Of a stretch of 18,746 nt of DNA, positions 15,501 through 17,111 are shown in pieces. Position 1 is the stretch's first letter. Each line of letters opens with the position of its first letter. Both the position numbers and the translations under genes were made by a program. The stretch is from assembly GCA_019844455.1 (NCBI GenBank), contig GCA_019844455.1_3938.2, one strand, 5' to 3'. This DNA is from a phage. The notes under the pieces are model-generated. The model had not been told where the DNA came from and searched no databases. It saw nothing but the letters and a program-made list of their open reading frames with translations.

Positions 15501-17111
15501 ACGTCTATAAAGAGACTCTATACAATCCCTTTCCTTTCCTTCCTAGAATCTATCCCACTAATTCGATAGAGACTATCTCATACCTTAAAAAGCAATAACT
15601 CTATAGTCTACTCTATAACCTCTTATCAAATCAACTTAAATATAAGCCCATAACCCGAAAGGGAAGGGCAACCATTTAAACGCTCTATAAAGCCCTATAA
15701 CAGCCTTATCAACCTAACTTAAGCAATCATATTAACCCACTCTAAAAAGCCCTTTATAGAGCTTCCCAGAGCCTTAAAAGAATCTTATAAGGGTGTGAGC
15801 TTTATCATCTCGTTAGCTATCTTGTGAACTACTAAAAAGGGCTTGTTAGTGTCTTAAAAGTATGTTATAGGGGCTATAAAGTTACTTCAAAGTTACGTAA
15901 AAGAGGCTATAAAGTTACGTAAATGCTAGCCCCCTTAACATTTTCTTAACAATTTCTTAACAATCCCTACATAGTTATGCTTTTAAGGCACTTGTTAGAG
16001 ACTTGTTAGCCCCTTGTTAAATCTCTGTTAAGACCACGTAAAAGCCTTGTAAGAGTCTTTAGCATAGCCTTTAAAGCCTCTGTAAAGCCCTATAAAGAGG
16101 TGTCTGTATAGTTGGGGTGTAATTACTAGGAAGAGACTTAAAAGAGCTTACAAGGAGCTATAGAGAGCTTTTAAGAGGGCTATTTAGAGAATCACTAAGA
16201 GGGAAAGGGAACGATAAGAAAAGAGAAGTTGTGTTTGTAACCAACCACTGTGACCATGTTAATAGCTTGTTAAAAAGATTAAACACTTGTTAGAAACTTG
16301 TTAATTATCTTAACAAAATAACCCTTTAAAATTAACTTGTTAGCTCTTGTTAGTCATCTGTTAAGATTCTGTAAAGCCTATGTATCAACTGTTAAGAACT
16401 TGTTACAACCTTGTTAGTTCTGTTAAGAATCTGTTAAGACCTCTGAAGAGATGTTAAGAGTATGTAGTAGCTGTTAAGAGATTGTTAAGGATATTTTAAA
16501 ATTCTGCAAAGGGATGGTAAGGGAGCTGTTAAGGGCTACCAAGCAGATATACACCCTCAACAGATATTTTTGAGTTCCTTCAAAGACCCTAAAAAATGAC
16601 TTGGTAGTCCTATTTTATAAAAATTTTAAAATTCTGAATAATTACCTAGACAGTCTTTTAAAAATACAGGTAGAAACAGGCTTATAAGATACCTTGTTAG
16701 TACCGTGTTAGACCTTGTGAGATAAGGTCTGTAAAGATATTCCTGTTAAGTTTGTTAAAACAGTCTATATAGAGGCTTAGTAATACCTAGTGAACACCTA
16801 TAGAGGGTAACATAGCTGACATAGAGATTAAGAGGTGTATAGGAGCTTCTAAGAGGGTATAGAGGGATGACTAAGGTGATTGTATAGGCTGTTAAGAAGG
16901 CTTGTTAGAAGAGTGTTTAGAGGGCTTATTAAAGGGCTAGTTAGAAGGCTTATACAGGGGGGCTATTAAGACCACTAGATAGTTACTAAGATACTATATA
17001 GTACTATATAACTATATATAGAGAGTAAGATTAAGAAGGATGTTAAGAAGGATAGATATTTTATTCACATATGATGGTGACCCAGAGGTTGGAACAACCG
17101 ATAAAATTTTT
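15501..17111. other. 1.6-kb ORF-free, repeat-dense non-coding region between convergent terminators
   Basis: The ORF track shows no ORF of 60 aa or more in any frame between the array terminator and the minus-strand terminator. Sequence is dominated by 8-mer words of the form CT....AG (cttgttag, ctgttaag, ctataaag, ctgtaaag, cttataag). Confidence 0.7.
15842..16908. repeat. helically phased array of a degenerate 8-mer (CTTGTTAG / CTGTTAAG / CTGTAAAG; reverse complement CTTAACAA)
   Basis: Copy starts mapped by hand: 15991, 16002, 16013, 16025, 16046, 16069, 16080, 16090; 16266, 16286, 16297, 16336, 16346, 16358, 16369, 16389, 16399, 16410, 16420, 16431, 16471, 16482, 16526; further copies to 16901. 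Spacings are mostly 10-12 bp or multiples. Reverse-complement copies at 15934, 15945, 15956 and 16309. Confidence 0.65.

Follow-up and report, generated by a model that had tools for sequence, protein, structure and literature searches.

Phased arrays of short words surround a predicted direct terminal repeat at the genome ends of a Felix O1-like phage

We analysed a non-coding island in an 18,746-nt stretch of phage DNA (NCBI GenBank assembly GCA_019844455.1, contig GCA_019844455.1_3938.2), which we refer to as the window. An earlier note on this DNA had singled out positions 15501-15930 for a change in strand composition and for a set of short words. We propose that this segment is the left sub-terminal repeat array of a concatemer junction whose core is the short direct terminal repeat (DTR) of the genome, and that the phased words of the junction serve the processing of the genome ends, a reading that we consider probable. 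The source phage is a Felixounavirus, a Felix O1-like myovirus, as judged from the matches of positions 15440-17155: 257 phage records match this interval, nearly all of them felixounaviruses infecting Escherichia, Salmonella or Shigella, and 184 of the 257 span at least 80% of it at 80-92% identity. The terminases of Felix O1-like phages have been reported to group as a DTR cluster (PMC4837284); the large terminase gene itself is located outside the window.

The DTR is placed at positions 15929-16540 (612 bp), starting with GCCCCCTTAACA and ending with TGTTAAGGGCTACC, by homology to relatives whose ends have been mapped. GenBank records of relatives begin at GCCCCCTTAACA or end at TGTTAAGGGCTACC. 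When positions 15929-16540 were used as the query, the records of H12, Ro111lw and Pr103Blw started exactly at query position 1, that of REP10 started within the first 20 bases, and those of GE_vB_7A, NJ12 and EcSzw_1 stopped at query positions 610-611. The record of NBEco005 carries the repeat at both ends, its first 651 bp being the same as its last 651 bp, and both copies map to positions 15929-16540 of the window. Similarly, positions 1-581 of the Pr103Blw record (MW481326) are identical to positions 87841-88421, and both are annotated as 'short direct terminal repeat region'; PhageTerm analysis of this phage had given DTR packaging with two 581-bp repeats (PMC8303462). At the homologous locus of these close relatives, virion DNA contains two copies of the repeat, and the concatemer or circular map contains one.

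The boundaries of the repeat are conserved together with its position. The left boundary string (...AAATGCTA/GCCCCCTTAACATTTTC, where the slash marks the boundary) and the right boundary string (...TGTTAAGGGCTACC/AAGCAGATATACA) are each identical in the window, Pr103Blw and NBEco005. To compare more distant phages, we aligned 11 islands from three genera of the Ounavirinae (Felixounavirus, Suspvirus and Mooglevirus), and we examined the island of Erwinia phage phiEa21-4 (Kolesnikvirus) separately. Both boundary motifs were found in all 12 islands, including that of phiEa21-4, and they delimit DTRs of 439-651 bp. The motif AAGCAGATATACA (16541-16553, plus strand), which abuts the right DTR boundary on the outside, is invariant at the equivalent place in the same 12 islands. 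The best candidates for recognition or cut signals are AAGCAGATATACA, just beyond the right boundary, and TAGCCCCCTTAACA, which spans the left one.

Published mapping of the ends of phage UAB_Phi87 points to the same locus. A 608-bp DTR was measured in this phage by Bal31 digestion and run-off sequencing, with Bal31-sensitive SpeI fragments of 4322 and 2819 bp (PMC4837284). These sizes predict a fragment of 6533 bp (4322 + 2819 - 608) across the junction. By in-silico digestion, the UAB_Phi87 record has six SpeI sites, and only the island-bearing fragment, at 6568 bp, fits the prediction, the next candidate being 2026 bp off. The boundary motifs in this record predict a DTR of 614 bp, as against the published 608 bp. 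We also considered a position near wV8 gp055, where the UAB_Phi87 record starts, and rejected it, the start of the record being arbitrary; it is not a physical end, since the two ends of the record overlap each other. This self-overlap of record JN225449.1 exceeds 300 bp and is probably about 542 bp: 87,603 - 542 gives 87,061, and addition of a 608-bp DTR gives the published length of 87,669. Because the record ends of relatives, the PhageTerm annotation and the SpeI/Bal31 data from UAB_Phi87 converge, we take positions 15929-16540 to be the DTR. By the same homology the island is predicted to be the concatemer junction, and the segment at 15501-15930 would abut the left cut site.

The island is densely packed with short words in helical register. 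We counted 65 CTNNNNAG words in positions 15498-17075, against 12.1 ± 3.1 in dinucleotide-preserving shuffles, and their pairwise spacings cluster at 10-12, 21-23, 31-34 and 42-44 bp. Tandem Repeats Finder (TRF) likewise reported many short arrays with units of 10-12 bp across the island. The words quoted in the earlier note, ctctataaag (15683-15692), ccctataacag (15693-15703) and ccttatcaacc (15704-15714), are all present in the left part. One member of the broader CTNNNNAG family, CTATAAAG, occurs 11 times in the window, with 1.0 ± 0.96 expected, and six of the 11 copies lie in the island. The dominant sub-family is TGTTAR: its 31 island sites, of which 27 are on the plus strand, occupy the DTR and the right flank. 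Of the 185 TGTTAR sites in the complete genome of phage DE17, 31 fall in the island, which makes up 1.9% of that genome, and two 500-bp bins of the island hold 16 and 12 sites (median for the genome, 1). Elsewhere in the window, the intergenic region 14064-14263 contains two TTGACA hexamers 14 bp apart (starts at about 14096 and 14110), followed by an island-like mini-cluster of CTAAAAGG, CTTAAAAG and two copies of CTTTATAG; island-type words are therefore not wholly confined to the junction.

From left to right, the arrays differ in their words and composition. The left sub-terminal array (15498-15928), recognised by its skew, its words and rows of 11-bp tandem repeats, has more C than G and is built from CTCTATA, CTATAA(A/C)AG and CTTAAAAG words about one helical turn apart, embedded in C-rich spacers. 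Within it, positions 15646-15669 can form a conserved two-step hairpin, GCCC-ATAA-CCC-GAAA-GGG-AA-GGGC (-5.3 kcal/mol, z = -2.5). In NBEco005 the same element reads GCCA..CCCC-AGAAA-GGGG..TGGC, such that paired changes preserve both stems; we regard this hairpin as a lead and not a result, because it is a matter of a single variant sequence. A 33-bp tandem duplication (15856-15921, plus strand), which emerged as a repeat family in a self-comparison of the window, ends 8 bp before the left DTR boundary. Its two copies (15856-15888 and 15889-15921) are 76% identical and hold both copies of the 14-bp exact repeat ggctataaagttac, which the earlier note had located correctly at 15872-15885 and 15905-15918. 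One 33-bp copy is absent from fjerdesal, DE17, UAB_Phi87, SUSP1 and Michonne, and since several of the larger indels among relatives are whole repeat units, the duplication is a lineage-variable product of slippage.

Just inside the left edge of the DTR are three CTTAACA units, the reverse complement of TGTTAAG (15934-15964, minus strand), at an exact spacing of 11 bp (TRF period 11, 2.8 copies, 95% matches). From there on, the word positions show TGTTAR throughout the DTR (15989-16532, plus strand), 19 copies being forward and four reverse, mostly 10-11 bp apart. Outside the right boundary, the island alignment defines a conserved AT-rich block (16575-16660), which is followed by the right sub-terminal array (16661-17075), a G- and purine-rich segment recognised by its skew and TRF rows. 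Its units are TATAGAG, GGCTTGTTAGAAG and GTTAAGAAGG, and it includes a 12-bp tandem array at 16886-16951. We also observed a 17-nt perfect inverted repeat, ATTTTATAAAAATTTTA and TAAAATTTTTATAAAAT (16612-16628 and 17102-17118), that brackets this G-rich array; its first arm lies in the AT-rich block and is conserved across genera.

The strand-composition switch described in the earlier note follows from this architecture. At a coarse scale the switch is real: the left flank (15498-15928) has a GC skew of -0.23, the DTR one of +0.14 and the right flank (16541-17120, 58% purine) one of +0.28, compared with an average of 0.10 ± 0.08 in 430-bp windows of coding strand. The two 300-bp GC-skew extremes of the whole window are both in the island, -0.44 at 15451-15750 and +0.50 at 16801-17100. 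At a resolution of 100 bp, however, the values break up into patchy blocks and there is no single clean switch. The description of the left part as C- and pyrimidine-rich also holds in part, since C exceeds G (93 C and 58 G) but pyrimidines make up only 52%. The coarse pattern is conserved: in all 12 islands the left flank is negative (-0.10 to -0.29) and the right flank positive (+0.22 to +0.31). We attribute the switch to the mirror arrangement of the flanking arrays, which have the same G-rich polarity when read inward from either end. In line with such an arrangement, the two flanks share 62 7-mers in inverted orientation (31 ± 10 in shuffled sequence) and 33 in direct orientation (27 ± 8.5), and the flanks of phiEa21-4 share 45 in inverted orientation (24 ± 7 in shuffled sequence). 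When the left and right flanks were compared as mirror images, no clean alignment emerged, the relation being a statistical excess of inverted shared words.

The earlier note had suggested that such a switch could mark a replication origin or terminus, or the boundary between convergent transcription units. The last of these suggestions was borne out. Plus-strand genes stop at 15437 and minus-strand genes at 17156, and each block is followed by a terminator. That of the plus-strand block (15473-15500, plus strand) lies in a segment, 15441-15500, that folds at -12.8 kcal/mol (z = -3.1), and the annotations of AYO145A and Michonne have a terminator at the homologous site. It looks bidirectional, because a run of A precedes the stem and a run of T follows it. 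A separate GC hairpin, GGGGCTA..TAGCCCC (15448-15463, plus strand), lies just 3' of the last plus-strand stop codon and is kept in all 11 aligned islands. The terminator of the minus-strand block (17121-17146, minus strand) was found in a terminator scan, and its homologous site is annotated as a terminator in AYO145A.

The suggestion of an origin or terminus fared less well. On such a reading, the island would be or contain an iteron-type origin, the words being iterons, the AT-rich block at 16575-16660 an unwinding element and the skew switch the sign of diverging replication. Several features are as such an origin would have them: the one dense cluster of phased short repeats in the genome sits in the island, beside a conserved AT-rich block, in DNA that is non-coding and strongly selected, and phage T7 is reported to have secondary origins near its ends. 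However, the cumulative GC skew of the complete DE17 genome rises over plus-strand gene blocks and falls over minus-strand ones, with turns at about 2.5, 10.1, 47.5 and 57.5 kb. Because the skew turns wherever gene direction changes, it contains no independent replication signal on the genome scale, and the island is a turning point in DE17 only because convergent gene blocks meet at it. The window has no excess of DnaA boxes (six, with 5.9 expected, and one of them in the island), and no recognisable initiator gene adjoins the island. Iterons are typically 17-22 bp long, and the words of the island are 8 bp long and far more numerous. Many short direct repeats in helical phase beside an AT-rich block are a likeness to iteron origins, but here the array coincides with mapped packaging ends. 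The fixed, conserved boundaries match those ends, and selection on the island is therefore already explained. On the DE17 skew and the DnaA-box scan, we rejected an origin or terminus read from the skew, and we consider an iteron-type origin in the island improbable.

It is less probable still that the words act as promoters of the phage, such as late promoters of the T4 kind related to TATAAATA, or that the island encodes outward non-coding RNAs with the skew reflecting the direction of transcription. The earlier note had pointed to a resemblance to the T4 late-promoter core, and CTATAAAG does have TATAAA in common with that core. Nevertheless, TATAAATA is absent from the window and occurs only three times in DE17. 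In that 86.7-kb genome CTATAAAG occurs only nine times; the island accounts for two copies, at least five of the remaining ones are inside genes, and, on comparison with the annotation, none is upstream of a structural gene. T4-type late promoters were accordingly rejected. As for host-type promoters, TTAACA, the reverse complement of TGTTAA, resembles a -35 hexamer, and 13 weak sigma-70-like sites were found where 5.7 ± 2.0 were expected. All of these matches score 9-10 of 12, though, and because of that resemblance most of them simply coincide with the repeat word. Each flank has a skew opposite in sign to that of its adjoining gene block, the left terminator looks bidirectional, and the leftward T7 promoter A0 lies within the left array of T7, all of which would suit promoters or outward transcription. 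Against this reading, no Rfam family matches the island, the sole hit being Phe_leader (E = 0.15) over the right terminator, and several of the larger indels are whole repeat units.

Comparison between genera indicates that the island is under constraint. Relative to SUSP1 and Michonne, three segments of the island are 72-83% identical (gaps excluded), and three adjacent genes are 60-70% identical. Within the island, the CT..AG frame positions of the words are conserved at 0.79 and the spacers at 0.71 in these two distant genera, a difference reached in six of 300 permutations; TGTTA cores reach 0.89, with 0.71 for other columns (SUSP1 and Michonne). In phiEa21-4, TGTTAA(G) again occurs in the DTR and the right flank, and the left flank, still C-rich, contains 12 copies of TTCTAA. 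These data bear on the possibility that the arrays are functionless, being slippage repeats that accumulate in a gene-free gap between terminators where only the cut sites matter. Slippage is evidently ongoing, as several larger indels between islands are whole units of 11, 12, 24 or 33 bp; the left-flank word varies between genera, and the 33-bp duplication with its 14-bp repeat is dispensable in several phages. But the island is better conserved between genera than the protein genes beside it, the spacers are more variable than the word frame positions and TGTTA cores, and skew polarity and array layout persist as far as phiEa21-4. We therefore consider it unlikely, about as much so as an origin, that the arrays lack a function.

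The closest analogue that we found is the concatemer junction of phage T7, and the resemblance in layout is strong, even down to a word ending in AAAG. We inspected the T7 ends and found CCTAAAG, CTTAAAG and CATAAAG words inside the 160-bp terminal repeat and in arrays on both sides of it, at spacings that are multiples of 13 bp; these arrays are said to have been named SRL and SRR by Dunn and Studier in 1983. In both phages, each concatemer unit contains a short exact terminal repeat once, 7-8-bp A-rich words ending in AAAG (CTATAAAG, CTTAAAAG and CTGTAAAG in the island) lie inside the repeat and on both sides of it, and the words are slightly more than one helical turn apart in non-coding DNA at the genome ends. 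Short-word arrays at about one helical turn on both sides of the repeat are thus common to the two junctions. There are also clear differences. The two junctions are without sequence homology, the terminal repeat is 160 bp in T7 and 612 bp here, and T7 has about 12 words per side whereas the island has about 65 over about 1.6 kb. The dominant island word, TGTTAR, is not found in the T7 arrays. In T7 the arrays are direct, with the same word on the same strand and the same C-rich composition on both sides; in the island the left words differ from the right words, and the flanks have opposite composition and inverted shared words. T7 junction processing is coupled to the T7 RNA polymerase promoters phiOL and phiOR. 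For the myovirus Felix O1, no homologue of a phage RNA polymerase or sigma factor has been reported (PMC3185647).

In phages with short DTRs such as T7, replication produces concatemers in which each junction has a single repeat; terminase cuts at defined positions, and the other copy of the repeat is made during packaging (PMC10438801). By homology, terminase would cut the DNA studied here at or near 15928/15929 and 16540/16541, the left cut falling at ...GCTA/GCCCCCTTAACA and the right one at TGTTAAGGGCTACC/AAGCAGATATACA. Duplication of the repeat during packaging would then place a DTR at both ends of every virion DNA, with the left array just inside the right-hand copy. Since the words are more constrained than the spacers and than the neighbouring genes, we propose that they are putative sites at which a protein of packaging or end processing binds, for example the small terminase or an accessory protein that bends DNA. 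From the phased words, this protein would impose a bend or a wrap on the junction, allowing the two cuts and the duplication of the repeat to proceed correctly, and flanks of mirror polarity would present each boundary in an equivalent way.

Several observations weigh against an end-processing junction as we have drawn it. The DTR in the window is placed solely by homology to mapped relatives, at 86-92% identity, and the sizes of the UAB_Phi87 fragments agree only to within 35-110 bp, individual fragments being 68-109 bp off the sizes given by the boundary motifs. The 100-bp skews across the island are irregular (-0.64, -0.37, -0.14, +0.22, -0.29, +0.25, +0.57, -0.31, +0.06, +0.58, -0.27, +0.18, +0.26 and +0.66), and the inverted relation of the flanks is statistical (z about 3), with no clean inverted repeat. 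The dominant left-flank word depends on the genus (CTCTATA in Felix-like phages and TTCTAA in phiEa21-4) and is without a reverse-complement counterpart on the right. No protein that binds the words was identified, and each of the eight flanking proteins falls in a PHROG family of unknown function. As far as is known, there is no agreement on what the analogous arrays of T7 do.

A bolder version of the end-processing reading is that the 1.6-kb junction is a single large nucleoprotein site, whose approximately 65 phased words, above all the TGTTA cores, are coated or wrapped by a dedicated phage or host protein, the mirror arrays positioning both cuts and the 612-bp duplication. We offer this version tentatively and hold it to be doubtful, although less so than the rival explanations considered above. 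If it were true, the junction would be a packaging 'centromere' far more elaborate than the pac and cos sites described so far, and might also act as a replication origin or in protection of the ends after injection. An additional role of the island in replication or end protection may accompany packaging.

The island is free of open reading frames (ORFs) over 1.7 kb (15438-17155), the longest ORF inside being 42 amino acids, and annotation of its interior in relatives is limited to 'hypothetical protein' or 'repeat_region'. A hidden protein gene was rejected on the size of this largest ORF and on the several larger indels that are whole repeat units. Small 'hypothetical proteins' have been called inside the island in several relatives (for example Phi87_32-34 in UAB_Phi87 and gp118 in Michonne); these calls are probably spurious, because the indels are unit-sized and no reading frame is conserved.

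Two further repeated elements lie elsewhere in the window. The sequence CCTAAACTGGAG, allowing up to one mismatch, occurs on the plus strand at 9447, 10214, 10593, 11193, 12263, 14244, 14838 and 15167, eight copies where 0.07 are expected. Each copy is just upstream of the ATG of an early gene, often with a GC hairpin before it (for example at 14806-14828 and 15133-15157), and the element looks like a conserved cassette for translation initiation or RNA processing. The second element, TACTTTACAAGGGGCTTAAAAG...CTTAAGCCCCAGATAAAGAG, occurs four times (9679-9735, 10151-10200, 10530-10586 and 12200-12256) and matches the 57-bp direct repeats that have been described in Felix O1. It can be read as a sigma-70-like promoter, TTTACA-N17-TATCTT, whose spacer contains a hairpin.

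That felixounaviruses have a DTR, and roughly how long it is, had already been published and annotated. The DTRs of Pr103Blw and UAB_Phi87 share their locus, boundary strings and flanking genes with the island studied here; the reports on those two phages give the repeat length only, and in the literature covered we found no account of the arrays, the boundary motifs or the composition switch. Nor did we find a description of these features in the literature on Felix O1, UAB_Phi87, VpaE1, Michonne and Pr103Blw, or in the PhageMaP preprint on gene essentiality in Bas63, a negative that is not proof of novelty, since coverage of the literature was incomplete.

The position of the DTR settles the point at which Felix O1-like genomes ought to be opened. 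Of the roughly 250 GenBank records, most have been linearised at an arbitrary place, and several have small, probably spurious ORFs annotated in the island. More generally, a local skew switch in non-coding phage DNA can stem from the architecture of repeat arrays, and not only from replication. The two end motifs, GCTA/GCCCCCTTAACA and TGTTAAGGGCTACC/AAGCAGATATACA, together with the phased TGTTA array, are concrete targets for the study of how short-DTR myoviruses recognise and duplicate their ends, which matters for the rebooting and engineering of these Salmonella and E. coli biocontrol phages, which are in wide use.

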